Shown here: one piece after another, positions 22,096 to 37,316 of the stretch
Layout of the letters: each line of letters opens with the position of its first letter
Position numbering within the stretch: position 1 is the first letter of the stretch
Program-made: the position numbers and the translations under genes
Source: a virus
Taxonomy: Duplodnaviria; Heunggongvirae; Uroviricota; Caudoviricetes
Length of the DNA: 37,316 bases
Direction: 5' to 3' (one strand)
IMG/VR virus record: IMGVR_UViG_2537561977_000024
Notes under the pieces: model-generated
What the model was told of the DNA's origin: nothing
Seen by the model: the letters and a program-made list of their open reading frames with translations, nothing else
Database searches by the model: none

Positions 22096-23862
22096 ATGAA
22101 CACCACACTGACACCCGCAGATCTCGATCCCCGTCGGCAGGCCATGCTGCTGTACTTTCAGGGATACCGCGTCGCCCGCATTGCTGAAATGCTGGGCGAG
22201 AAAGTTGCAACCGTTCACAGCTGGAAAAAACGCGACAAGTGGGGTGACTATGGGCCGCTGGATCAGATGCAGCTCACCACCGCCGCACGCTACTGCCAGC
22301 TCATCATGAAGGAGCACAAAGAAGGGAAAGATTTCAAAGAGATTGACCTGCTGGCGCGCCAGTCTGAGCGCCACGCGCGGATCGGCAAGTTTAACAATGG
22401 CGGCAACGAAGCCGACTTAAACCCTAACGTCGCCAACCGCAACAAAGGCCCACGCCGTCAGCCTGAAAAGAATGTTTTCACCGATGAACAGATTGAGAAG
22501 CTGGAAGAAATCTTCCATTCCTCCATGTTCAACTACCAGCGCCACTGGTGGGAAGCCGGAAAAACCAACCGCATCCGCAACCTGCTGAAGTCACGCCAGA
22601 TCGGCGCGACCTTCTATTTTGCCCGTGAAGCCCTGATTGACGCCCTGCTGACCGGACGTAACCAGATTTTCCTTTCCGCCAGTAAGGCACAGGCCCACGT
22701 CTTTAAGCAGTACATCATCGACTTTGCCAAAGAAGTGGAGGTGGAGCTGAAAGGCGATCCGATGGTGCTTCCTAACGGGGCCACGCTTTACTTCCTCGGC
22801 ACCAATGCCCGCACTGCCCAGAGTTACCACGGCAACCTGTATCTGGATGAATATTTCTGGATACCAAAATTCCAGGAACTGCGCAAAGTGGCTTCCGGTA
22901 TGGCTATTCACAAGAAATGGCGACAGACCTATTTTTCCACGCCATCCAGCCTGACACACAGTGCTTATCCGTTCTGGTCCGGTGCACTGTTCAACCGTGG
23001 GCGCAACAAAGCCGATAAGGTGGACATCGACCTGTCCCACAGCAATCTGGCCCCCGGCCTGCTGTGCGCAGACGGGCAATACCGCCAGATAGTCACCGTG
23101 GAAGATGCGGTGCGCGGCGGCTGTAACCTGTTCGACCTCGACCAGCTACGCATGGAGTACAGCCCGGACGAATACCAGAACCTGCTGATGTGCGAGTTTG
23201 TGGACGATCTCGCGTCCGTGTTTCCGCTCAGCGAGCTGCAGGCGTGCATGGTGGACAGTTGGGAAGTCTGGACCGACTTTCATGCACTGGCGCTGCGCCC
23301 GTTTGGCTGGCGCGAAGTGTGGATCGGTTATGACCCGGCAAAAGGTACGCAAAACGGCGACAGCGCCGGATGCGTGGTGGTGGCACCGCCAGCCGTGCCG
23401 GGTGGTAAGTTCCGCATTCTTGAGCGTCACCAGTGGCGCGGGATGGACTTCCGCGCCCAGGCTGACGCCATCAAAAAACTTACCGAACAGTACAACGTGA
23501 CTTATATCGGTATCGACTCAACCGGCGTTGGTCACGGGGTTTACGAGAACGTGAAAGCGTTCTTTCCTGCCGTCCGGGAGTTTGTCTACAACCCCAACGT
23601 TAAAAACGCCCTGGTACTCAAGGCCTACGACATTATCAGCCACCGCCGTCTGGAGTTTGACGCCGGACACACCGACATTGCGCAGTCATTTATGGCAATC
23701 CGTCGCGCCACCACCGCCAGTGGCAACCGCCCGACCTATGAAGCCAGCCGCAGCGAAGAAGCCAGCCACGCCGATCTGGCATGGGCAACGATGCACGCAC
23801 TGTTTAACGAACCGCTGCAGGGCGAATCCGCCAATACCAGCAATATTGTGGAGATTTTTTGA
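22096..23862 (+). CDS. P: terminase large (ATPase) subunit P
   Basis: 588-aa ORF beginning MNTTLTPADLDPRRQAMLLYFQGYRVA like P2 gpP. Confidence 0.9.
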   Translation: MNTTLTPADLDPRRQAMLLYFQGYRVARIAEMLGEKVATVHSWKKRDKWGDYGPLDQMQLTTAARYCQLIMKEHKEGKDFKEIDLLARQSERHARIGKFNNGGNEADLNPNVANRNKGPRRQPEKNVFTDEQIEKLEEIFHSSMFNYQRHWWEAGKTNRIRNLLKSRQIGATFYFAREALIDALLTGRNQIFLSASKAQAHVFKQYIIDFAKEVEVELKGDPMVLPNGATLYFLGTNARTAQSYHGNLYLDEYFWIPKFQELRKVASGMAIHKKWRQTYFSTPSSLTHSAYPFWSGALFNRGRNKADKVDIDLSHSNLAPGLLCADGQYRQIVTVEDAVRGGCNLFDLDQLRMEYSPDEYQNLLMCEFVDDLASVFPLSELQACMVDSWEVWTDFHALALRPFGWREVWIGYDPAKGTQNGDSAGCVVVAPPAVPGGKFRILERHQWRGMDFRAQADAIKKLTEQYNVTYIGIDSTGVGHGVYENVKAFFPAVREFVYNPNVKNALVLKAYDIISHRRLEFDAGHTDIAQSFMAIRRATTASGNRPTYEASRSEEASHADLAWATMHALFNEPLQGESANTSNIVEIF

Positions 23863-24899
23863 TGGGAAAGAGTAAGAAGAACCGAGCTGCGGCGACGAAA
23901 CAGATCCAGCTTAAAAGTCAAACTACAGCCGAAGCATTCAGCTTCGGCGATCCCGTTCCTGTTCTGGACCGCCGTGAACTGCTGGACTATGTGGAATGCG
24001 TACAGATGGACCGTTGGTATGAGCCGCCCGTCAGCTTTGACGGACTGGCGCGCACCTTCCGCGCCGCCGTGCATCACAGTTCCCCGATTGCAGTAAAGTG
24101 CAACATTCTGACCAGTACCTATATCCCTCATCCGCTGCTCAGCCAGCAGGCTTTTTCGCGTTTTGTGCAGGACTATCTGGTATTTGGTAACGCCTACCTG
24201 GAGAAACGCACGAACCGATTCGGTGAAGTTATCGCCCTTGAGCCTGCCCTGGCAAAATACACCCGACGTGGATTAGACCTGGATACCTACTGGTTTGTGC
24301 AATACGGCATGACAACGCAACCGTATCAGTTCACGAAAGGCAGCATTTTTCACCTGATGGAACCGGATATCAACCAGGAGATCTACGGCCTGCCCGGTTA
24401 TCTTTCTGCCATTCCGTCAGCCCTGCTCAACGAGTCCGCCACGCTGTTCCGTCGAAAGTATTACATTAACGGCAGTCATGCAGGCTTCATCATGTACATG
24501 ACCGACGCCGCGCAGAACCAGGAGGATGTAAACAACCTCCGTAACGCGATGAAAAGCGCCAAAGGACCAGGTAACTTCCGCAATCTGTTTATGTACTCGC
24601 CTAACGGCAAAAAGGACGGACTTCAGATCATCCCATTGTCAGAAGTCGCGGCGAAGGATGAGTTTCTGAATATCAAAAATGTCAGCCGCGATGACATGAT
24701 GGCAGTGCACCGTGTGCCACCGCAAATGATGGGGATTATGCCGAATAATGTTGGGGGGTTTGGGGATGTGGAGAAGGCAAGCCGTGTATTCGTCCGAAAT
24801 GAGCTAATGCCACTACAAAAGCGATTACAGGAGATGAATGATTGGCTTGGCAAGGAGGCGATACGGTTTGATACCTACTCGCTAGATATAGCCCCATAA
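23859..24899 (+). CDS. Q: portal protein Q
   Basis: 346-aa ORF overlapping P stop; length like P2 gpQ. Confidence 0.9.
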   Translation: MMGKSKKNRAAATKQIQLKSQTTAEAFSFGDPVPVLDRRELLDYVECVQMDRWYEPPVSFDGLARTFRAAVHHSSPIAVKCNILTSTYIPHPLLSQQAFSRFVQDYLVFGNAYLEKRTNRFGEVIALEPALAKYTRRGLDLDTYWFVQYGMTTQPYQFTKGSIFHLMEPDINQEIYGLPGYLSAIPSALLNESATLFRRKYYINGSHAGFIMYMTDAAQNQEDVNNLRNAMKSAKGPGNFRNLFMYSPNGKKDGLQIIPLSEVAAKDEFLNIKNVSRDDMMAVHRVPPQMMGIMPNNVGGFGDVEKASRVFVRNELMPLQKRLQEMNDWLGKEAIRFDTYSLDIAP

Positions 24900-24903
24900 T
24901 AAG

Positions 24904-24930
24904 AAAAGCCACCGTTTGGTGGCTTTTCTT
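24904..24930. terminator. bidirectional hairpin terminator between Q and the cargo operon
   Basis: aaaagccacc-gttt-ggtggctttt between convergent genes. Confidence 0.6.
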
Positions 24931-24933
24931 CAT

Positions 24934-25674
24934 TTACTCAATAGGTTCAAACTCATCTTGAGGAATCAGCGTCGATTGACAGGCTTGGCTTAGTACCCCT
25001 GATAATTTACATAATAACCGATAGTTATGAGGAGCATCATCGCTAATCTTTTCGACCGTTAAAGTGATTGATTTTGGATCATCCAATAACATCTTCTTGA
25101 TGTCATTACTTAAATACCTAGGGCAGTAACCAACGATTTCAGCTGGTTTATCTGCACGAACGACAACAGCATCCCCATCGTATTCATTTTGAAGATCCAA
25201 GCAAAGACGCAAAATTTGCCCCGGTTTCAATTCAGATACACGAGCATTAGCTAAGCTATTCAAGTAACCAAGTCCATGTAAGAAGAAAAAATGCTCAAAG
25301 TTACCATCAGAATCAAAATCAATTTTTTTGAAAATCTGCAGCTGATCAGTGCTTCGTAAGCCTCCCGAGCGAGCAAGAATATCGATAGGATTTACCTTAT
25401 CTTCTTCAAATCCAAGCCATTTAATGAAACTCGGATACTCTGGACGTCTCGGTGATAAAAGGCGATTTTTAAAAAGAGGAAACAATTCTTCCGATACATA
25501 AGTTTCACGAACATCACTCATGCCGCTAAACTTTGTAAATTTAGAAGATTTAAGAGCACCTTTGGTATACCTGAAAACATACCCCGATTTGCGCTCTTGC
25601 AAGTTACCAACAACATGCCAGTCTCTGGTATCTGGTGCCTGCCATGCGACGTAAACGGAGTTTGTATTAGTCAT
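24934..25674 (-). CDS. HipS-like N-domain fused to C-terminal HIRAN-like domain
   Basis: N-terminal VGNL..FRY...LFPLFKNRLLSP resembles HipA N-subdomain; C-terminal LRLCLDLQNEYDGDAVVVRA...VGYCPRYLS..IKKMLL fits HIRAN consensus; start overlaps kinase stop (ATGA). Confidence 0.6.
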   Translation of the reverse strand: MTNTNSVYVAWQAPDTRDWHVVGNLQERKSGYVFRYTKGALKSSKFTKFSGMSDVRETYVSEELFPLFKNRLLSPRRPEYPSFIKWLGFEEDKVNPIDILARSGGLRSTDQLQIFKKIDFDSDGNFEHFFFLHGLGYLNSLANARVSELKPGQILRLCLDLQNEYDGDAVVVRADKPAEIVGYCPRYLSNDIKKMLLDDPKSITLTVEKISDDAPHNYRLLCKLSGVLSQACQSTLIPQDEFEPIE

Positions 25675-26585
25675 TCTAGTAACCTTCTGCGATTTTCCAT
25701 TACCATTAACGTTGCAAATCTACGTGCACTGTCGGATATACACGATGAAGGCACTTGGTTAAACACATCTGTAATGGAATCTTCTGTTAAAACGCTCAAC
25801 TTACCTAACCAATGGTCGCGAGCGGCAACTCTCCCTTCAACTGCATGTTGAAATGCTTCAACAGTCAGCAAGGGCTTTTTATCAGTTTTTGCTTTGAATA
25901 GCTCAGAGCGAGCTTTTCTTACAAAACATGGGATTTGTCGATTTTTATCTTTAGTATTAAGCCGTTCGTTACGCTCATCATCTAACATCTCCCTTCCTAA
26001 ACTAGCGGCATGATCGTATGTTGGACACAAAAACTGCTCACCAGTTTCATTGTTAAGCATGATTGCCCAATTTTCATGGTGGCGATCTTGATTACTCACA
26101 AGTGCATCGAGCATCAAATATCCACAAAATACATCTGCTGCATTTAGCCCGGTTAGATCATATACACTCGGAGGAGGCTTGATAGATTCCCTATCTAAAC
26201 AACCCAAGACCCTTGTGACAGTGTGTTCTCTGACCCTTACCGGCTTTTCCCCGGCTTGTAAAGGCCCAGGATAATCGAATGTCGAACTGTGAAGCACTTC
26301 ATTTCCCATTACCATCCGGAAACCAGATGGAATGATATTCTGAGTCACCACACCGAATCGACCATTGTATCGCGCCAAATCATAGCTAGCATGTGGAATG
26401 TTAAGCAAATGACATAACTCAGCAGCACACTTTTCAGACCAATGCTCGCCAGTACCTGGCCTAGAGTACTTAAACAACTGCAAATTTACAGTGTCATCGG
26501 AGAAATAGAACCAAAACTTCTCTTTGGTTCCTAACTGTTCAAGATCGTTAGCTACGGGGCTAAGCTCTACCAATTGGTATGGCAT
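25671..26585 (-). CDS. HipA-family Ser/Thr kinase core (HipT-like, lacks HipA N-subdomain)
   Basis: Gly-rich loop LGTKEKF at residues 18-24, catalytic VSNQDRHHENW (D167), PTYDHAAS (D191), with HipA-like spacing. Confidence 0.7.
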   Translation of the reverse strand: MPYQLVELSPVANDLEQLGTKEKFWFYFSDDTVNLQLFKYSRPGTGEHWSEKCAAELCHLLNIPHASYDLARYNGRFGVVTQNIIPSGFRMVMGNEVLHSSTFDYPGPLQAGEKPVRVREHTVTRVLGCLDRESIKPPPSVYDLTGLNAADVFCGYLMLDALVSNQDRHHENWAIMLNNETGEQFLCPTYDHAASLGREMLDDERNERLNTKDKNRQIPCFVRKARSELFKAKTDKKPLLTVEAFQHAVEGRVAARDHWLGKLSVLTEDSITDVFNQVPSSCISDSARRFATLMVMENRRRLLE

Positions 26586-26679
26586 CTGACATCCCTGTTT
26601 AGCGGATTATGAATAAGTTAGGTTCCATTTTATCCAAACATTGTCAAATACCCTAAGATTTATTAGATGATAGAGCGAT

Positions 26680-26697
26680 ACTGTATGTATGTCCAGC
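26680..26697. promoter_or_regulatory. possible LexA box upstream of kinase operon
   Basis: ACTGTATGTATGTCCAGC: CTG-N10-CAG with one canonical CTGTAT half-site; ~100 bp upstream of 26585 start. Confidence 0.3.
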
Positions 26698-26737
26698 AAT
26701 CAAATCAATATATAACTCTTATATGGCTTAACGCGCG

Positions 26738-26756
26738 CTCGTATCCCCGCCACGCC
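26738..26756 (-). other. candidate cos cohesive-end site
   Basis: Minus-strand GGCGTGGCGGGGATACGAG resembles P2/186 cos 19-mers as recalled (first 13 nt match the 186 form). Confidence 0.4.
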
Positions 26757-27142
26757 TGCCCGCTTTATGTAGTGGTTTTCATGCACTTGCATGACATAAA
26801 CAAAAGCCCGCCATTCCTGGCGGGCCTCAACTAAAACGATCTTCAAACGATCATGCGAATTCATGCGGCATAGACATGCATTGTTGCTTTATCGATCTTT
26901 TCTTACTTCAAGTGAGTCCTTATGGCCTCCTGTCCACCTTGCGCTGCGCGTTCCCCCTGCCTCCCTTTGTCATAACTTAGATTTAATCCTCATAAATCAA
27001 GAGGTACTACACAAAGTACCAACTCACAACACTCAACAAACAGCCAATAATGAGCATAATACTAACTTGACTACTCCATAAAAAAATACGTAAACTACAT
27101 TCATCAACAGTATTTCTCTAAAAAAGACGGGGTCACAATTCA

Positions 27143-27623
27143 ATGGCTACTACCAACTGTATTACTGTACTTACTGCTCGTGGTTTAACAGAGATTTTGA
27201 ACACAGGGGGAAGCCAAGCATGGAGACTTGACGCCAGCCATGCAGCTAAGCACGAATATTTAGTTTGTGTACAAAATTCGAGAAAGGACTGGGGATCACA
27301 AGAAGCAAAACATCATCATGCTTTTATGATCGGTCGAATCTCGGGAGTAAGCAGGGCTCCAGAAAACCCTAAACGCTGGATCATAAACATCAATTCTTAT
27401 GCTGAAATTGACATCCCAGGACAATGGGATGGCAATCGGAATCCCGTTTCTTATCGCAACCTCAAAGACATTGGCATTGAGGCTGACAAGTTGGAATTTA
27501 AAGCTCTTCCCAAATTAACCCCGACTAATTCGATTGTCGATCAAGCGGGTGATGAGTACGAAGAAGAAGAAGAAAATGTAGTTAAGCCGTTAACACTTCA
27601 GGAGGCAAAAGCAGGGCTAGCCC
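27143..27623 (+). CDS. hypothetical protein, 3' end replaced by IS insertion
   Basis: ORF after 550-bp AT-rich region; acidic DEYEEEEEN linker; reading frame runs into IS left end at 27624; original C-terminus continues after IS at 28927. Confidence 0.5.
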
Positions 27624-28917
27624 CTGAGGGATCCCCAGAAAATTTAGTAAACCATTATCATATTGGTATACCGTTGCTGTAGAACTTTCAGCCCTGCGTC
27701 AAGTGACAGTGTGTTTAGTATGAGTGGAGAATGTCGAATCACATTCTCCGCCAGTTTTAATAACGAGATGACTCGCCTGTGCTTCACTGTATTTGCCTGA
27801 TATTTATGATGTATCCCTTTGTTTTCCAGGCTGAAACCGCTTAACCACATAATGATACTGGCTAATGTTGCGATCAGACTCAATACCGTGACCCGCCCGG
27901 ATGAATGACTGGCACCAAACCGTAGTCCAAATCCCCAGCGAGGATTTTTTTCATCCCTGAAATTTTGCTCAATTTGCATTCTACGGCTGTATAATTTCAT
28001 TACCTGTTTTGGCGAGAACTCAGTACTGTTTGTGAAAATAAACCATGGTGATTTCCCGGCAGTACGAGCTTTAGCCGTCACCGATGGTCTGGTTGCTCTT
28101 TCCTTCGAGCGTTTAAATCTACGACCTTTAGGCTTACTTTTATAAAGATAAAAATGCCCTTCATGTTGTGCATTTTTATCTCGACCCAGCAGGCCTTCAC
28201 CTAAATAAATTGCTGTCGTTGATGCTTTTGTGCCTGAGTCCGACACCTTTTCCCAGCCATTACCAACATTGTAATAATGATTGCCCAGTACCCGGCAAAT
28301 ATAGGTCCAGCCACGGGAGCGGAGCTGTTGGAACCATCGCCCCTGAAAACCGGCATCTGTAATAACAATGACATCAGTCCCGGGGGAAAAGCACTCAGCA
28401 AGCGATTCCAGAAAACGCTCATGTACATCTGCATTCGCTGTCTGTGATGATGGAACGACACAACTCATCAACGGTAAAGAACGCCCGTCACATGCCAGGC
28501 TTGCCCGCAAAAGCTGAAAACGAGAGGCATGATAAGCACTCCAGTCAATGAGTATCACAACACGAGACATTCCCCGCGTAATCTTTTGGGTAATTCGCTG
28601 AAAAATGGTGGAAACCTCATTTTGCAAATGTCGATTCCCCAACAGTCGATCCACCCGCTTTATTTTGTTTTTAACTGATGCCGTACCGGTTAAATGACGC
28701 CCGATACTGGTAAGTGTGAGGGAAGCGCCATTTATTACAGCATTAGTTGCGTCAATCAGTGATTTTTGACGGTAAAGATGCAAAGGGGCCAGTATGTTGT
28801 TAAGGAAATTTTGGCATAATGAACGTGCAGGCATAGTGGTGATCTCCTTGAAATTGTTAGCACAATCAATTAGATCACATCTCACTATGCCTGTCTTGTT
28901 TTCTGGGGATTCCTCAG
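27624..28917. mobile_element. IS10-like insertion sequence (IS4 family)
   Basis: Terminal inverted repeats CTGAGGGATCCCCAGAAAA / CTGAGGAATCCCCAGAAAA; flanked by direct repeat GGCTAGCCC (27615-27623 and 28919-28927). Confidence 0.8.
27644..28834 (-). CDS. IS10-type DDE transposase
   Basis: Motifs KRVDRLLGNRHL, TDAGF, YSRRMQIEQNFRDEK align with IS10 transposase as recalled; start set at MPARS. Confidence 0.85.
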   Translation of the reverse strand: MPARSLCQNFLNNILAPLHLYRQKSLIDATNAVINGASLTLTSIGRHLTGTASVKNKIKRVDRLLGNRHLQNEVSTIFQRITQKITRGMSRVVILIDWSAYHASRFQLLRASLACDGRSLPLMSCVVPSSQTANADVHERFLESLAECFSPGTDVIVITDAGFQGRWFQQLRSRGWTYICRVLGNHYYNVGNGWEKVSDSGTKASTTAIYLGEGLLGRDKNAQHEGHFYLYKSKPKGRRFKRSKERATRPSVTAKARTAGKSPWFIFTNSTEFSPKQVMKLYSRRMQIEQNFRDEKNPRWGFGLRFGASHSSGRVTVLSLIATLASIIMWLSGFSLENKGIHHKYQANTVKHRRVISLLKLAENVIRHSPLILNTLSLDAGLKVLQQRYTNMIMVY

Positions 28918-29243
28918 GGGCTAGCCCTATACTTTGGTGTTAATGAAGAAAATATTCAAATAACTATACAAGGTTAAGGCTTTTAAACCGGCATAAGTGG
29001 CCATTACTTTTCGTTCGAAGTGGCGCTTCCGGTCTAACAAGCATCTAATAGGATTTTCGTATCTATCACAAATCCCAAAAGGTAATTTGCAGCCCATCAT
29101 ACGTAGCAAAACTAACGTTCGGTTAAATCTGAGCGGAAGTGAAAATAATGGTTACTGTATTTTACCCCATGACTAATGCCCCACTAAACTAGTTGTTCAA
29201 CGTTGCTGACGTCAGAAGCAAGTTCAGACGCCAGCAACGTTTC

Positions 29244-29477
29244 TTAATGCAGCCAGCTGTCGTCTTCCCACACCTTCTGCATAATTTTCATCACTTGTTT
29301 TCTTTCTTCGTCCAGTTGCAGTCCGGTCAGTTCCACACCATTAGAGCTACCTTTACGGATACGAATTACCGCTTTGGGATACAGGGGGCGCAGATTGCGG
29401 TAAAGCTCGGATTCAAGGGCGTCCAGGGTAGACTGGCTAATTTTCTGCTCTTTATCGATCATTATTTCAATGCGCAT
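29244..29477 (-). CDS. DinI-family protein (186 Tum C-domain-like)
   Basis: MRIEIMIDK...ALESEL...KIMQKVWEDDSWL parallels DinI; GAGGTGA SD before this Met; ORF track extends to 29549 without SD. Confidence 0.75.
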   Translation of the reverse strand: MRIEIMIDKEQKISQSTLDALESELYRNLRPLYPKAVIRIRKGSSNGVELTGLQLDEERKQVMKIMQKVWEDDSWLH

Positions 29478-29716
29478 AAAAGTCACCTCAACTGATGACA
29501 TCCATTGAGCGGCTGTATTCGTGGATTCTGATCTTTGCCATGAGTTCATCAGTCAATTCAGAAACCCACTGCAGGGCCAGCCCCTTCTCTTCATCACTAC
29601 ACTCACTAGCCGCTACAAGCTTAAGAAAAAATCAATGCGCTGGAGCTTCAAAGACTCCAAAAAATAGTCCTGCATTTTTCCTCCTATGACACCACAAGCA
29701 ACACTGTATGCATAAC

Positions 29717-29736
29717 CACTGTTTATATTTACAGTA
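29717..29736. promoter_or_regulatory. LexA box (SOS operator)
   Basis: CACTGTTTATATTTACAGTA, near-consensus CTGT-N8-ACAG, ~240 bp upstream of DinI-like gene. Confidence 0.65.
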
Positions 29737-29827
29737 TATAATAATCTTACTGATGTAAAACGTTTTTTACATTCATCAGCATGATATGCTTGGTATTATT
29801 AAGAGCACGAATTGTTAGCCCGCGGAA

Positions 29828-32242
29828 TTAATACAGGTTCCGCCACTTATCATCTTCCCGCAAACGCTGGTTCCGATAGAAGATACGCAGGCCTGCTCCT
29901 GACGGAATACTGCCGCCGCGAAGGAGTAAATCGACCTCTTTCTCGCTACCATCAAATCCTCTGGACTTCAGCTCATAGACGAGCTGCAGTCGCTGATGGT
30001 CTGTAATTCGCTGTTTGTAGTCTTTACGCCGTTTCGGTTTAACCAGGCGTAACCTTGCTGCCAGTTCCCGGCGCTCTTTTTTGCTCATACTGTGCAGGTA
30101 ATCGTGCAACTCATTGTCATCCATGCGAGTAATGTCCGTTCTAGTGTCCCCATCAGCTGATTTATCTTTCTCCTGTTGGTTCAAATTTTCAGCAAGGGGA
30201 CAGTTATTGCCACGAGTCCAAGGGGCGCAAGCGCCCTGGTCGGCTGCCGCCTCCTGAACGTCAACGGCTTTACGAACCATTTTCCACTTCACTGCATGAG
30301 TGCAGATCTTGCCCTCTGCAATAGGTGACCAGATGCCATAAATACGAATGCCGTGATCGCCATAGGCGGTCGGCTCTTCGTTGATTTCATAAGCGGTTCT
30401 GATGAGGTGATATTTACGGGGAACCAGTACGCCGCCCTGCTTCATGATGTAGGTGGCAAAACAACCAGCATCAGCAGCAGCCAGGATGGCATCAAGGCGC
30501 GGGTTATCCAGTACCGGCGCACCTGCTTTTTTGTCCCCCTGTTGCCTTGCCGCCTGACCAGCCAGCAATCGCAGTTCACGGTAAGCCTGACGCCCCGGAA
30601 TGCCAAAGAAGCGGAATTGCTGAACACGATGCAAAGACGCCCAGGCGTTCACGTATTCAGCGTTATCACGCAGAGATTTACCCGTTTCCTTGCTGATCTC
30701 GCCAGCCAGACCACGCCCGTCAATGTTCTTACTGATGTATTTCGCTATGTAGCTTGTCGGCGTTCCTTTGCGCGGGTTAATCAGCTCAGACTTAAAGCGC
30801 GGCCCCGTGTTATTGCCCAGCTCCTCGCGGTCTTCACGGATAGCAAACTTACGCAACAATGCAGTAATGGCGCGGCGGTCTTTTTTGCGCATGAAACACA
30901 ACAGGTGCCAGTGAACTGTGCCGTCGTGATGCGGCTCAGCCACCCGCACGCCATACCAGCGCAACCCGGCTTTGTGCATCGCCTTACGAAATGCAGCAAA
31001 CATACCGACCAGATAATCGCTGCTTTGTCTTACCGTCGCATTTGTCCAGGTCGGGTTGGGCCTGCCGTTATTTAGCGTGGAATGGAAACGTGACGGACAG
31101 GTGATGGTGTAGAAAACGGCGCAGTCACCGCGCATTTCCGCGATAAGCTCCAGACCTTTAACACAGGCCATCATCTCATTGCGGCGATGCGCAGGGTTGC
31201 TGCTGCTGGCGTTTACCACATCCTCCATGTCCAGCGTGTCGCCGTCTTCGTTCACCAGTTCATGAGAACGGAAAAACTCCAGCGACTTACGGCGCTGCTC
31301 ACGTTTATGCAACACGGCTTCATAGCTGACATAGGGAGATGCTTTTTTGCTGACAAGGCAGACAGCACGCAACTGCTCTTCCCGCCATTCGCAACGCATC
31401 TTCCATAATTTCCGATACCACCAGTCGGCGCACAACATACGCGCCAGCGAACCCGGAATGAGTTCATAGGGCACGGGTTTACGGCGGTTTCTTTTCCGAC
31501 GGAGTTGCTCAAACGCAGGCGGGATTACATCCAGACGCAGGGTTTCCGCTGCCACCCTTTCCCATGTATTGCGGATTTCTTCTGGCTTAACGTCATCGGT
31601 GGCATACAAATCGCCACAAGCGGCATCAAGGCACATACTCATATGCGCAGCTACCAGGGTGGACAGGCGTTTCACCTGATCCTGACTCATTTCAGGCAGG
31701 ATCAGCAGGCCGTCCAGCCCTTCATGGCTTGCCATAAAGCGAAAAGATGCAGATAGCTGACTGTCGCGTACATGCTCCAGTCGTTCCAGACATGGCTTAA
31801 TCGTCTCACGTAAATAGCGGGAATAAGCCTTTGGCCTGCCAAGGCTGCTGAAGTATTCAATACGTTGCATCAGCGGCTTGCTGATATGGGAAGGCTGGGC
31901 GTTGACGTCCGCCAGAATGACCATATCCGGATTAAAACGCTGCTGCTCATGCACCAGCTTTGCCCGACTAATGAGCTTATCCTGTTCCATTTCGCGCTGG
32001 ACAGGATCACGGGATTCATTAAAGAAATAACGCTCCCAGACCTGATCACTCAGCGCCTCACGGCGCAGCTGTTCCTGCTCGTTATCGGCAGCGTACAGAG
32101 TGATCAGGTTTGAAAGCGTAGAAACCGGCGCAACTTCCACCGGGTCCAGATAAGGGTTAATGGCCTTTTTCGGGCTGTTCCATGAGAACGATGCGGCAGC
32201 TTCGTTAAAGCCGCAGCAGTTGTTCATATCGGCATGACTCAT
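29828..32242 (-). CDS. A: rolling-circle replication initiator A
   Basis: 804-aa ORF in position of P2/186 gene A; start coupled to dam stop. Confidence 0.88.
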
Positions 32243-33096
32243 GCACGTACTCCGTACACGGCAGAACTATCCACGCCACGCGAATAATCAAATCCCACCC
32301 AGCAGCGCGGCCCGGAAACAGCAATGATTTCTGTTGCTGATTTACCCTCGCCAGCTGCCACACCGATGCTGCGTTTTGCCTTGATGTAGTGGTGAGTAAA
32401 ATTGCGATACAGCGAACGGATCAGGGATGTGTCACTGTTAGAAACAATGACCGGATGTCCTTCTGATGACCGATGTTCAAGAACAGATGCCAGGTGATAC
32501 TGGTCATCTTCAGTGAAGCCGTCAGTGTGATAGCCGGAAAACGTACCGTCATACGGCGGATCGCAATACACCACATCCCCCGCCTTCAACATCGCCAGCG
32601 TTTCATCAAAGCTGGCGCAGATAAACGTTGCTCGCTGGGCCTTTTCTGCAAATGCGCGAATTTCTTTTTCAGGGAAATACGGATTTTTATAATTACCGTA
32701 GGGAATGTTGAAATGCCCGCTCTTGTTATAGCGACATAAACCACGGTAACCGTGACGATTGAGATACAGGAAATATACCGCTTTCATGAAATCAGTAATT
32801 TCAGTGGAGTAATTAAACTCCTGCCTTATGTTGTAATAAGCCACCTCCCTGTTTGCGATCTCAAATAAAACTCTGGCGCGAGATATAAACGATTCACAAT
32901 CAGCGGCAACCTTTTTATAGAGGTTGATTAAATCAGGATTAATATCCGCAACCAGATAGCTGGGGTAATCCGTCTCCATCATCACAGCACAGGAACCCGC
33001 GAAAGGTTCAACCAGTCGCGGGCCAGCAGGAAGGTGTTTTTTCAGTTCGGACATAATGGCGGTTTTATTTCCCGCCCATTTCAGGATAGTGCTCAT
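32239..33096 (-). CDS. dam: Dam-like N6-adenine DNA methyltransferase
   Basis: LKWAGNK N-terminus, FAGS, DPPY motifs align with E. coli Dam; start set at [11 protein letters not shown]. Confidence 0.85.
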
Positions 33097-33320
33097 ACAG
33101 CACCTCCGTTGTAATGTTTGCCTTTCAGCTCTGCGATTTCCTGGCAGGTAATGCAAAGCTGCACTCCCGGAATGGCGCGGCGTCGTGCTGGCGGAATTGG
33201 CGCTTCACATTCAATACAAAGCACGCGAGACACGCCCGGTGTTTTGGCACGGGCAGCACGAATATGGCGCTGGCGTTCTTCTTCAACGCGCTGCTGTACG
33301 AGATCCATTGCATCAGCCAT
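33093..33320 (-). CDS. TraR/DksA-family C4 zinc-finger protein
   Basis: CIECEAPIP...CITCQ four-Cys pattern in 75-aa ORF. Confidence 0.7.
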   Translation of the reverse strand: MADAMDLVQQRVEEERQRHIRAARAKTPGVSRVLCIECEAPIPPARRRAIPGVQLCITCQEIAELKGKHYNGGAV

Positions 33321-34383: not shown

Positions 34384-34902
34384 TCACAGCAAACCGAATG
34401 AAGCACCAAGACCAGTCATGGTATCAACTGCACTCGCCATCGCAGGATTAGCCTGTAAACGGGCCTGCAATGAAACAGCAGCCAGCGCCATCAGTCGTGT
34501 AACAGAGTTAATGCTGCTGATCGCATCACGACGGCCTGCACTGGTTTTTACATCGCCAGAAACCGCACCTGCCGCGACACGTCCTATCTCTGCAGTTGCA
34601 CTCATGACGTAATGCGGCAGTTTCTCTTTTGCTACCTCATTAATCGGTACACATGGCAGGCAGTGAATCTGTGCCAGAAAACCATCTACCAGCGTTGAAT
34701 CTTCAGTCAGATCGGTAAGCAACCAAATTTCTGGTGCGGTTAATAAATGAGGTTGAGCTGGGTTCAGTTTGTTCCGCAGAATCTGCACATTCATGCCTGC
34801 ACGTTCTGCCAGTTGCACCAGATTGTGGCGCAGTGCGAATGCACGACAGGCTTCATCAAAATGTGGATGTTTGGAAACTTGGTAATCAAACATGGTTTTC
34901 AA
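34384..34902 (-). CDS. cII: 186 CII-like lysogeny establishment activator
   Basis: 172-aa ORF with [24 protein letters not shown], second gene of rightward early operon. Confidence 0.6.
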
Positions 34903-35161: not shown

Positions 35162-35306
35162 AAGGCAACATTCCTTCTAGATATGGCTTGTGGCGAGCCG
35201 TTGTTTGTCGTGATTAGTAGTGAAGGCTCCAAAAGAACACTTCCGGTTCAACTTTAAGATCGCTTTTGGAATCTATCAACGAATTTTGGATTTCTTTGGA
35301 GGACTT

Positions 35307-35876
35307 GTGGATTTCAATAGCGGCGGTAAGAAAGCCATAGAACGTTTAGTTGAAGCATATGGGTTCGGTACCCGTCAGGCTCTCTGTGATCATTTAGGTG
35401 TTTCTAAGAGCACCATGGCAACGCGCTATATGCGTGATATTTTTCCAGCAGATTGGGTAATCCAGTGCGCCCTTGAAACGGGCACCTCGCTTAATTGGCT
35501 AACAACAGGGCATGGTTCAAAGCAAGCATCAGCAAATACAAATACTATGGAAGTTGCTAAATATGTATTATCTGATGGGGCCTTATGTGAAGACGGTTTT
35601 TATATTTTCGATAGGGAATTTCTACCGTCGGCATTCAAGAATATTTTTGCAATCACAGATAATAATTCTGAATTTATTTGTGATAAGGAATTTGATGATA
35701 TACGTGATGGTAAATGGGTAATAAGTATTGATGGCGAAATAACGATCCGTGACATTACTCGTTTACCCGGTGGAAGAATCTTCGTCGAGGGTGGAAACAG
35801 AGCCTTCGAATGCAAGATAGAAGACATTGAAATAATTGGTAAAATTATAAGTTTAACAGTCAAGTATGTTAAATAG
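35307..35876 (+). CDS. cI: 186 CI-like immunity repressor
   Basis: [10 protein letters not shown]...[15 protein letters not shown] matches 186 CI pattern; start ambiguous (ORF opens at GTG 35220; GTG 35307 with GGAGGA SD gives 186-like length). Confidence 0.7.
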
Positions 35877-36084: not shown

Positions 36085-36272
36085 CTTTTGCTTTTATATC
36101 TGCGCCTAAAATAAAAATGAGCCGCAGGTTAACCGCAAAAATTACATGCTCACATAGCAAAAAGAATAGCCAACTTAATTATGGCTTCAGTGAGATGTAT
36201 GGTCGTAGGATTTCATACATTGACACTGGTTATACATACAGTGAAAATGCTCTCTACTGGAGGGCATTTTTT

Positions 36273-37316
36273 ATGGCAGTACGAAAACTAACCACAGGGA
36301 AATGGCTTTGCGAATGTTACCCCGCCGGACGCAGCGGGCGTCGCGTGCGTAAACAGTTCGCTACCAAAGGCGAAGCATTAGCTTTTGAGCGTCACACGAT
36401 GGAGGAGGCAGAAGCTAAGCCTTGGCTTGGTGAATCGGTAGACCGTCGAACTCTACAGGATATCGTTGAACTCTGGTTCAAACTGCACGGCAAATCCCTG
36501 ACCGCTGGCGAGCATGTTTACGACAAGTTGATACTGATGGTCGATGCTCTCGGAAATCCCCTCGCCACCGATCTAACATCCAAAATGTTCGCGCACTATC
36601 GCGATAAGCGCCTGACGGGTGAAATCTACTTCAGCGAAAAATGGAAGAAAGGAGCCAGCCCGGTAACTATCAATCTGGAGCAAAGCTATCTGAGTGGGGT
36701 CTTTAGCGAGTTAGCCCGACTCGGTGAATGGACAGCACCAAATCCACTGGAGAACATGCGTAAATTCACCATTGCCGAAAAAGAAATGGCCTGGCTGACA
36801 CATGAACAAATCACAGAGCTTCTGTTCGACTGTCAACGCCAAAGCCCCCTGCTCGCTCTTGTCGTCAAAATCTGCTTGAGCACCGGAGCACGTTGGCGCG
36901 AAGCTGTGAACCTGACACGTTCTCAGGTCACGAAATACCGAATCACATTTGTCAGAACTAAGGGCAAAAAAAACCGCAGCATTCCGATCAGCAAAGAGCT
37001 GTATGAGGAAATTGTTGCCCTAGACGGCTTCAAATTATTTACTGACTGCTACTTCCAGTTTTTAGCCGTGATGGATAGAACCTCGATCGTACTACCACGC
37101 GGGCAACTTACCCACGTTCTACGCCATACGTTCGCAGCACATTTTATGATGTCCGGCGGGAACATTCTTGCTTTGCAAAAAATCCTGGGCCACCACGATA
37201 TAAAAATGACTATGCGCTATGCACATCTTGCCCCTGATCACCTTGAAACAGCACTGCGTTTCAATCCATTAGCCACACTTTCCACTAAAGCAACGAACCT
37301 TGAAGCAAACAGCTAA
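36273..37316 (+). CDS. int: P2/186-family tyrosine integrase
   Basis: ARW, HxLRH and RY catalytic motifs; start set at MAVRKL with GGAGGG SD. Confidence 0.9.
   Translation: MAVRKLTTGKWLCECYPAGRSGRRVRKQFATKGEALAFERHTMEEAEAKPWLGESVDRRTLQDIVELWFKLHGKSLTAGEHVYDKLILMVDALGNPLATDLTSKMFAHYRDKRLTGEIYFSEKWKKGASPVTINLEQSYLSGVFSELARLGEWTAPNPLENMRKFTIAEKEMAWLTHEQITELLFDCQRQSPLLALVVKICLSTGARWREAVNLTRSQVTKYRITFVRTKGKKNRSIPISKELYEEIVALDGFKLFTDCYFQFLAVMDRTSIVLPRGQLTHVLRHTFAAHFMMSGGNILALQKILGHHDIKMTMRYAHLAPDHLETALRFNPLATLSTKATNLEANS

Follow-up and report, generated by a model that had tools for sequence, protein, structure and literature searches.

We analysed the interval at positions 24900-29830 of a P2/186-like prophage, within a window of 37,316 nucleotides (the window being the whole stretch of DNA that was analysed). 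The interval is bounded by the portal gene Q and the replication initiator gene A, both recognized by Pfam matches (Phage_portal and Phage_GPA), and corresponds to a variable hotspot already known in P2-like phages, the cos-proximal gpQ-gpA locus where P2 itself carries old and tin. A published survey of this locus, which adjoins cos, examined 18,150 loci, with 1,650 gene arrangements among them, and finds it enriched for anti-phage systems (Rousset et al. 2022, Cell Host Microbe, PMC9122126); its content likewise differs among near-identical E. coli prophages with conserved flanks. From Q to A, we found a kinase/HIRAN operon, a cos site, a gene-poor stretch, a gene here called p176, an insertion sequence (IS) within that gene and a LexA-box/DinI-like module (Table 1). 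No homologue of old or tin was present in the interval.

A first-pass annotation of this DNA had listed the same features, between the same flanks and in the same known hotspot, and had read them as one AT-rich cargo island carrying no core P2/186 gene. The features, flanks and hotspot assignment all held; the single island did not. Instead, the interval is likely to comprise two cargo slots around a fixed cos core, an IS insertion and then the phage's own SOS operon. The same degree of confidence applies jointly to this architecture, to the identification of the kinase/HIRAN operon as hipIN and to the assignment of the host element as a 186/Fels-2-like member of the P2 phage family.

Cargo slots, cos core and SOS operon

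Breakpoints come from aligning the window to Salmonella phage RE-2010 and four E. coli prophages. Identity breaks off near 24823-24872, where the cargo differs, and regained at 26729-26732; it is kept through 26879-26880, lost again and back at 29234-29246. The 152-bp core between the two variable segments is kept in L002, L003, L004 and RE-2010 regardless of the cargo on either side, and has a GC content of 0.51. It contains a cohesive-end sequence whose reverse complement, GGCGTGGCGGGGATACGAG, matches the cos of phage 186, GGCGTGGCGGGGAAAGCAT, at 16 of 19 positions, and the sequence beside it on the right-end side also resembles the 186 right end.

Both slots hold other cargo in related prophages. 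In place of the kinase/HIRAN operon, slot 1 carries a three-gene STAS-like cassette (L003) or an AIPR abortive-infection gene (RE-2010, L007). Slot 2 carries an Mrr-like restriction endonuclease with an ASCH protein (L002) or a 289-amino-acid hypothetical protein (L004), and in RE-2010 a different sequence that is apparently gene-free. Phage 186 has an empty slot 1, its portal stop codon being ~177 bp away from cos, and carries all its accessory genes (tum, orf97) on the A side of cos.

Prevalence was counted by searching 5426 complete E. coli genomes segment by segment. The Q portal type occurs in 1248 of them, hipIN in 21 (all copies at least 99% identical) and p176 in 8. Five genomes have both hipIN and p176, and three have p176 without hipIN, from which we conclude that the two slots assort independently. 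Coverage of the whole query stayed below 80% in all 5426 genomes; the best matches among them, at 99.8% identity, lack exactly the IS. The gene-poor stretch is itself a composite: the cos core stands between the upstream regions of hipIN and p176, and these two regions move with hipIN and p176, respectively. Small open reading frames (ORFs) at 26700-26864, 26863-27081 and 28927-29109 were rejected as genes, having no family matches and no annotation in relatives.

The module next to gene A has a close precedent in phage 186, where the LexA-repressed promoter p95 comes next after gene A; then come tum, whose 146-amino-acid product is a CI antirepressor that is DinI-like in its C-terminal half, a terminator and orf97, and lastly another terminator and cos. 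The LexA box in the interval is the sole perfect CTGT-N8-ACAG in the window, a motif found at least once in 36 of 100 shuffles, and its position corresponds to that of the p95 LexA site (a predicted site, by sequence match). Downstream, the DinI-like protein is 40% identical to Tum residues 71-145 (E 1e-23) and matches positions 71-148 of the 151-position PHROG 189 profile. The 62-amino-acid protein encoded before it matches PHROG 698 (7e-37); its similarity to the Tum N terminus was not detected by BLASTP, and Smith-Waterman alignment of its intact form to Tum residues 6-41 scored 57 against 21 ± 3.9 for shuffled sequences, none of 2000 reaching the observed score. Annotations of RE-2010 and of many E. 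coli genomes show the same split of Tum. No orf97 homologue was found in the interval.

The 586-bp LexA/Tum-N/DinI segment is present in 1125 of the 5426 genomes (1079 at 80% coverage or more), against 1248 with the portal type. A prevalence of ~90% in the lineage, together with the homology to 186, identifies the module as an SOS-induction circuit and as backbone, not cargo; by sequence comparison, it corresponds to p95-tum of 186. A 186-type CI (a Phage_CI_repr and Phage_CI_C protein at 35220-35876), CII (CP76, 34384-34902) and an integrase are likewise encoded in the window, and an operon of the p95-tum type would inactivate such a CI repressor after DNA damage. The first-pass annotation had counted the module as exchangeable cargo and had itself named conservation in the same position, with core functions, as what would speak against that; such conservation is what we found for this part of the interval.

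The copy in the window appears damaged. Relative to intact alleles, the Tum-N gene (intact as WP_052912896.1 in L001) has lost 1 nt from the A run at 29626-29631, with a stop after 20 codons, and the T run at 29763-29768 is likewise 1 nt shorter than in 99%-identical E. coli prophages. Weighing against a damaged operon, both deletions fall in homopolymer runs and could be sequencing errors; if they are real, SOS induction of this prophage may be impaired. The probable operon terminator is partly conserved in L004 even though the DinI-like gene is gone there. L004 (E. coli SW071614; 1-1200, 5048-5236) is a decayed prophage in which a truncated portal gene is fused next to a VgrG/Pvc8-like pseudogene; it lacks the DinI-like gene, with hipIN and the 62-amino-acid gene intact.

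The whole 4.9 kb could also be read, as it first was, as a single horizontally acquired AT-rich cargo island. The interval is indeed AT-richer than its flanks (GC 0.424, against 0.530 in the rest of the window); GC is uniformly low throughout (0.38-0.47), and the lowest-GC 4931-bp window of the entire sequence starts at 24901. We nevertheless regard a single island as very improbable. The conserved cos core, with its higher GC, divides the interval; across genomes, the segments to its left and right vary independently of each other; the IS came in later as a separate event, with a target duplication of its own; and the SOS module, found in ~90% of portal-type genomes and homologous to a 186 operon, is as AT-rich (GC 0.428) as the rest. 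That this module is AT-rich yet conserved means that composition alone misleads on what is cargo and what is backbone: low GC marks the interval and fails to single out its cargo. Likewise, the claim that the interval has no core P2/186 gene gives way to one that carries core functions, a cos site and a 186-type SOS operon. Splitting the hotspot at cos and excluding the LexA/Tum-N/DinI backbone would sharpen hotspot-based mining for defence genes.

Assignment of the host element draws on the P2-type terminase, capsid, GPD tail gene, 186-type CI/CII and integrase present in the window or in relatives. Near the left end of the window, an Asp-Al_Ex/TrkA_C permease gene (935-2620, +) looks like host DNA, and the integrase ORF (36117-37316, +) runs to the last base; with host-like DNA at one end and the integrase at the other, the window spans almost exactly one prophage. 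It contains no tRNA genes.

Table 1 Features of the Q-A interval and its flanks (window coordinates)
Feature	Position	Strand	Remarks
Portal gene Q (186 W homologue)	23859..24899	+	Pfam Phage_portal 7e-19; conserved left flank
Cargo slot 1 (Q to cos)	24900..26728		Left end of packaged genome; holds hipIN
Hairpin, bidirectional terminator of convergent Q and hipN	24901..24930		Perfect 13-bp stem, 100% complementary, flanked by T/A runs; position of 186 tW
hipN-like gene	24934..25674	-	N-terminal HipS-like and C-terminal HIRAN domains; putative antitoxin/sensor
hipI-like gene	25671..26585	-	Short HipA-family Ser/Thr kinase, 304 amino acids; putative toxin/effector
ORF-poor stretch	26586..27142		557 bp, GC 0.408
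Candidate hipIN promoter	26667..26695	-	Sigma-70-like TGGACA-17-TATCAT, 10/12 matches; 82 bp upstream of kinase start
Conserved cos core	26729..26880		Separates the two slots; contains the 19-nt cohesive-end sequence
cos cohesive-end sequence	26738..26756		19 nt; reverse complement GGCGTGGCGGGGATACGAG
Terminator	26803..26828	-	11 pairs, 7 of them G-C; position of 186 t95b
Cargo slot 2 (cos to SOS operon)	26881..29243		old/tin and orf97 position; ~1.06 kb before the IS insertion
p176, 5' part	27143..27623	+	Codons 1-160 of 176-amino-acid gene; fusion ORF with IS, 179 amino acids, ends at 27682
Target-site duplication	left 27614..27623, right 28918..28927		10 bp, GGGCTAGCCC; single copy in empty site of L001
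ISEc60-like IS4-family element	27624..28917	-	1294 bp; 19-nt imperfect terminal inverted repeats CTGAGGGATCCCCAGAAAA / CTGAGGAATCCCCAGAAAA
IS transposase	27644..28834	-	396 amino acids; Pfam DDE_Tnp_1 2e-20; NCBIfam IS4 family transposase 1e-107
p176, original 3' end	28927..28977	+	Last 16 codons and stop, beyond the IS
Hairpin, probable SOS-operon terminator	29199..29241		19-bp arms, 89% complementary; just downstream of DinI-like gene; position of 186 t95a
SOS operon, phage-186 type	29244..29827	-	LexA box, Tum-N homologue and DinI-like Tum-C homologue
DinI-like gene	29244..29477	-	77 amino acids; Pfam DinI 1.4e-22; homologue of Tum C-terminal half
Tum-N homologue	29488..29675	-	62 amino acids when intact; frameshifted in window
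LexA box	29719..29734		CTGTTTATATTTACAG; over likely -10 of SOS promoter (TTTACA ... TATACT, - strand)
Replication initiator gene A	29828..32242	-	Pfam Phage_GPA 1.8e-127; conserved right flank

The kinase/HIRAN operon of slot 1

The two genes of slot 1 overlap by 4 nt and are matched by PADLOC, a defence-system finder of the kind that the first-pass annotation had proposed to run, as candidate system PDC-M03, the kinase as component A (2.1e-122) and the HIRAN protein as component B (6.8e-93). Three kinase motifs (GTKEKFWF, QDRHHENW and YDHAASLGRE) are invariant across 19 diverse homologues, and the family profile matches the HipA-like kinase CtkA (3akj, E 0.002). By sequence, the product is a HipA-homologous core kinase that, at 304 amino acids, is too short to include N-subdomain 1. 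Its partner has a Pfam HIRAN domain at residues 127-228, and its predicted model structurally matches both HipS and HIRAN. PDB sequence searches with HipI, HipN and p176 gave no significant match, nor did a HipN profile search of PDB; the domains of HipN and p176 were resolved by fold comparison only. No gene for a HipB-type helix-turn-helix (HTH) repressor lies beside the pair in the window, and no HTH-matching ORF was found in the 152 bp from the kinase start to cos. The candidate promoter is the region's best sigma-70-like match by consensus, the count of such sites being no higher than in shuffles.

These properties are those of hipIN, in which the kinase HipI is paired with HipN, a HipS-like and HIRAN protein presented as a putative antitoxin whose HIRAN domain 'may bind DNA'; HIRAN domains bind 3' DNA ends (Gerdes, Baerentsen and Brodersen 2021, mBio, PMC8262856). 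That the slot 1 operon is this hipIN, and equally PDC-M03, is part of the reading we hold likely. Two points weigh against it and against a defence role. Pfam HipA_C scores below threshold for the kinase (20.7 against 30.5 bits), although HipA_C is on record for many of its homologues, and our literature searches found no experimental study of hipIN or PDC-M03; because none was found, we treat defence as a candidate function only.

The same pair is present in published tables. RefSeq accessions WP_001146828 and WP_000185756/WP_000185757, which are this kinase/HIRAN pair in the near-identical E. coli prophages L001, L002 and L004, appear together in Table S5A of the hotspot survey (WP_001146828 paired with WP_000185756 or WP_000185757), and its Table S6 has an entry for a 'HIRAN-kinase' system, from a hotspot of a Vibrio prophage; the pair was outside the set of systems cloned and tested there (PMC9122126). 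We also found the two genes together with overlapping frames, always adjoining the portal gene, in P2-like prophages of Salmonella and other Enterobacteriaceae, and in a Vibrio parahaemolyticus Mu-like prophage (L019 4082-5735), where they adjoin the Mu F and portal genes. Thus, hipIN in L019 stands beside head-morphogenesis genes in an unrelated phage type too. Stutzerimonas integrase-borne elements (L020-L022) also carry the pair, in some cases accompanied by an HTH_3 gene upstream and by a gene for a PhdYeFM antitoxin, and a more distant pair occurs in 14-kb Vibrio elements.

We infer the toxin-antitoxin behaviour of hipIN, the sensing role of HIRAN, the kinase target and the anti-phage phenotype by analogy with related systems. 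HipA and HipT act on aminoacyl-tRNA synthetases by phosphorylation. In our proposed mechanism, HipN's HipS-like domain would supply in trans the N-terminal subdomain missing from the kinase, as HipS does for HipT, and would keep HipI inactive, by analogy with HipBST. The HIRAN domain would most likely either autoregulate the operon or sense an infecting phage through its DNA ends or replication intermediates. Freed HipI would then phosphorylate an essential translation factor, block translation and abort the infection.

Whether hipIN protects against phages is, on this evidence, an even question. It might instead be a plain toxin-antitoxin module for addiction or persistence that stabilizes the prophage or raises the antibiotic tolerance of the lysogen, with HIRAN as a DNA-binding autoregulator in place of HipB and no anti-phage role. 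HipA-family modules are classically tied to persistence and to plasmid and prophage stability, the 2021 study presents HipN solely as a putative antitoxin with a HIRAN domain that 'may bind DNA' (PMC8262856), and the missing HTH/HipB gene in the window and the literature without a defence experiment fit this explanation as well. Against it, the cassette sits in defence-rich variable hotspots of unrelated elements (P2-like, Mu-like, integrase-borne and 14-kb Vibrio), PADLOC lists the pair as a defence candidate, and its rarity, 21 of 1248 prophages of the lineage, fits fast-turnover defence cargo better than maintenance. We consider a purely addictive module rather unlikely, noting that addiction and defence roles are not mutually exclusive. 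As a candidate defence system, hipIN is compact and widely mobile and joins a HipA-type kinase to a DNA-end-binding domain.

On the Q side of the operon, an Rfam scan returned only one match, to the Brucella small RNA BSnc120 at 24846-24948 (+), over the end of Q and the Q/hipN hairpin. At 36.4 bits against a gathering threshold of 114, we rejected it as most likely a terminator-driven chance match.

The interrupted gene of slot 2

Slot 2 contains p176 and the IS that splits it. Removing 27624-28917 and one copy of GGGCTAGCCC restores a 176-amino-acid ORF identical to WP_000246368.1 of E. coli 21AR0133, and the empty-site allele matches at 99.8% identity. The element has the DDE transposase, terminal inverted repeats, target duplication and empty site of an IS4-family insertion; its earlier label, 'IS10-like', is fair at the family level. 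It shares 99.7% identity with an ISEc60-annotated copy in E. coli CFSAN029787. This independent ISEc60 copy (L008) has GGGGTAGCCC on both sides, indicating that the element duplicates 10 bp (9 possible) of a near-palindromic target. Because the match to that copy extends beyond the IS ends, we considered whether GGGCTAGCCC is part of the terminal repeat; we rejected this, since that copy is flanked on both sides by the different decamer GGGGTAGCCC and the empty site has a single copy of GGGCTAGCCC. The duplicated GGGCTAGCCC is a perfect palindrome and near-identical to GGGGTAGCCC. Near-identical decamers at two independent insertions suggest marked target-site specificity of ISEc60, and the element would have transposed into the palindromic GGGCTAGCCC target within p176. 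The insertion replaces the last 16 residues of the protein, including the nearly invariant G164, V165 and I172, and from its sequence p176 is probably inactive in this window.

The p176 family has 74 detectable members, all unnamed. None of the 47 members searched matched Pfam, and p176 itself matched nothing in Pfam, NCBIfam and PADLOC scans. The family alignment comprises a conserved domain of ~120 amino acids, a variable acidic linker and a C-terminal motif, PLTxxEAKAGLAxxFGVxxxDIxITIxG. Structure prediction, run on the 99%-identical P0001, gave a PUA-like (EVE/YTH/ASCH) beta-barrel, a similarity at the level of fold only, with the linker disordered and the C-terminal motif forming a helix-strand. 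Aromatic residues W27, F61, W95 and Y104 are invariant in the family, and W50 and Y86 nearly so. The ASCH protein found in slot 2 of L002 is no relation of p176 by hhalign (probability 0.1%). From the predicted fold, p176 is probably a nucleic-acid-binding, and probably modified-base-binding, accessory protein of mobile elements.

The relatives of p176 weigh against simple host defence, which their contexts fit poorly. One homologue lies in a small integrase-borne element. Another, of 215 amino acids (L012/L013 6001-6648, in Pseudomonas oryzihabitans and a metagenome), lies in the transfer operon of an integrative and conjugative element (ICE), between TraC/thioredoxin and DUF1525/TraU. An ICE transfer operon is an unusual site for a defence gene. 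Two Brevundimonas jumbo phages of 348 kb (ON529853.1 42368-42826 and ON529851.1 104912-105370) encode distant homologues, 28% identical across 95% of the protein (E 2e-13). Because of the transfer-operon and jumbo-phage contexts, we lean slightly towards a p176 that serves its element rather than defending the host; these contexts point at least as much to an element-benefiting function as to host defence.

A specific version of such a role, in which p176 benefits the mobile element as, for example, an anti-restriction or modification-associated factor binding nucleic acid, modified or single-stranded, while the element is entering or becoming established, is offered tentatively. The three homologue contexts above and the acidic disordered linker agree with it, as do the lack of a nuclease or effector domain and of a PADLOC match. 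Opposed to it are the position of slot 2, where restriction enzymes, old, tin and the exclusion gene orf97 of 186 are found, and the typical use of PUA-like domains as sensors by type IV restriction enzymes. The first-pass annotation had taken every gene of the interval as a defence or conversion candidate; this survives for the kinase/HIRAN pair, through PDC-M03, and weakens for the rest, of which one gene is a transposase and p176 is interrupted, with relatives in an ICE operon and jumbo phages.

Next to the interval, a D12-class N6-adenine DNA methyltransferase gene (32239-33156, -; Pfam 1.2e-76) lies immediately upstream of, and overlaps, gene A. The phage DNA may therefore be methylated by the phage itself, with possible consequences for what a PUA-like reader does in slot 2.

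A bolder joint proposal is that hipIN is a DNA-end-triggered abortive-infection kinase, in which free 3' DNA ends of an incoming or replicating phage, captured by HIRAN, pull the HipS-like clamp off HipI, and that p176 founds an undescribed family of stand-alone PUA-like readers acting for the mobile element, for example against modification-dependent restriction. We judge it improbable that both halves would hold together. The p176 family is of interest in lacking a Pfam model, having a predicted reader fold and being spread over very different mobile elements. For experiments on slot 2 or on induction, the window copy is a poor start, with p176 broken by the IS and Tum-N apparently frameshifted; intact alleles exist in, for example, E. 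coli 21AR0133.

Comparison with known systems

The case is ordinary and already known, with two reasonable experimental leads. The hotspot, its adjacency to cos, the kinase/HIRAN proteins (in published tables and PADLOC), the hipIN architecture, the 186 SOS operon and the IS are all on record. What we add is the two-slot anatomy, the placing of the SOS module in the backbone, model-based structural support for the two domains of HipN, a predicted fold for a family lacking annotation, and the description of a damaged copy.

Like hipIN of the 2021 study and PDC-M03, the slot 1 operon has a short core kinase that lacks HipA N-subdomain 1, a neighbouring gene for a HipS-like and HIRAN protein, conserved catalytic motifs and no HipB. 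HipBST differs in having a separate HipB repressor and a HipS that lacks HIRAN, and HipBA in having a full-length kinase.

The IS shares with the IS10/IS4 family a DDE transposase, repeats beginning CTGAGGGATCCCC (a start resembling the IS10 ends), a symmetric target and a direct flanking duplication. IS10 duplicates 9 bp of target, whereas the duplication here reads 10 bp (9 possible), and the RefSeq name is ISEc60, not IS10. Compared with the PUA-like readers (EVE, YTH and ASCH domains; VcaM4I, PD-T4-3 and McrB N-terminal domains), p176 stands apart in having no detectable Pfam relationship and an extra acidic linker and conserved C-terminal motif; unlike type IV restriction enzymes, it has no fused or adjacent nuclease or NTPase domain.

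The SOS operon resembles that of 186 in lying directly downstream of gene A, in the LexA box over its promoter, in its homologues of both Tum halves, in the terminator before cos and in the 186-type CI of the prophage. It differs in that Tum is one protein of 146 amino acids in 186 and is represented by two ORFs (62 and 77 amino acids) here and in RE-2010. Finally, the interval agrees with the hotspot described by Rousset et al. (2022) in its flanking genes, cos adjacency, high turnover of content and short systems of one to three genes. There, the locus is treated as one interval and DinI and the 62-amino-acid gene are counted as its content, whereas here cos splits it into two slots and the DinI/62-amino-acid pair belongs to the backbone.

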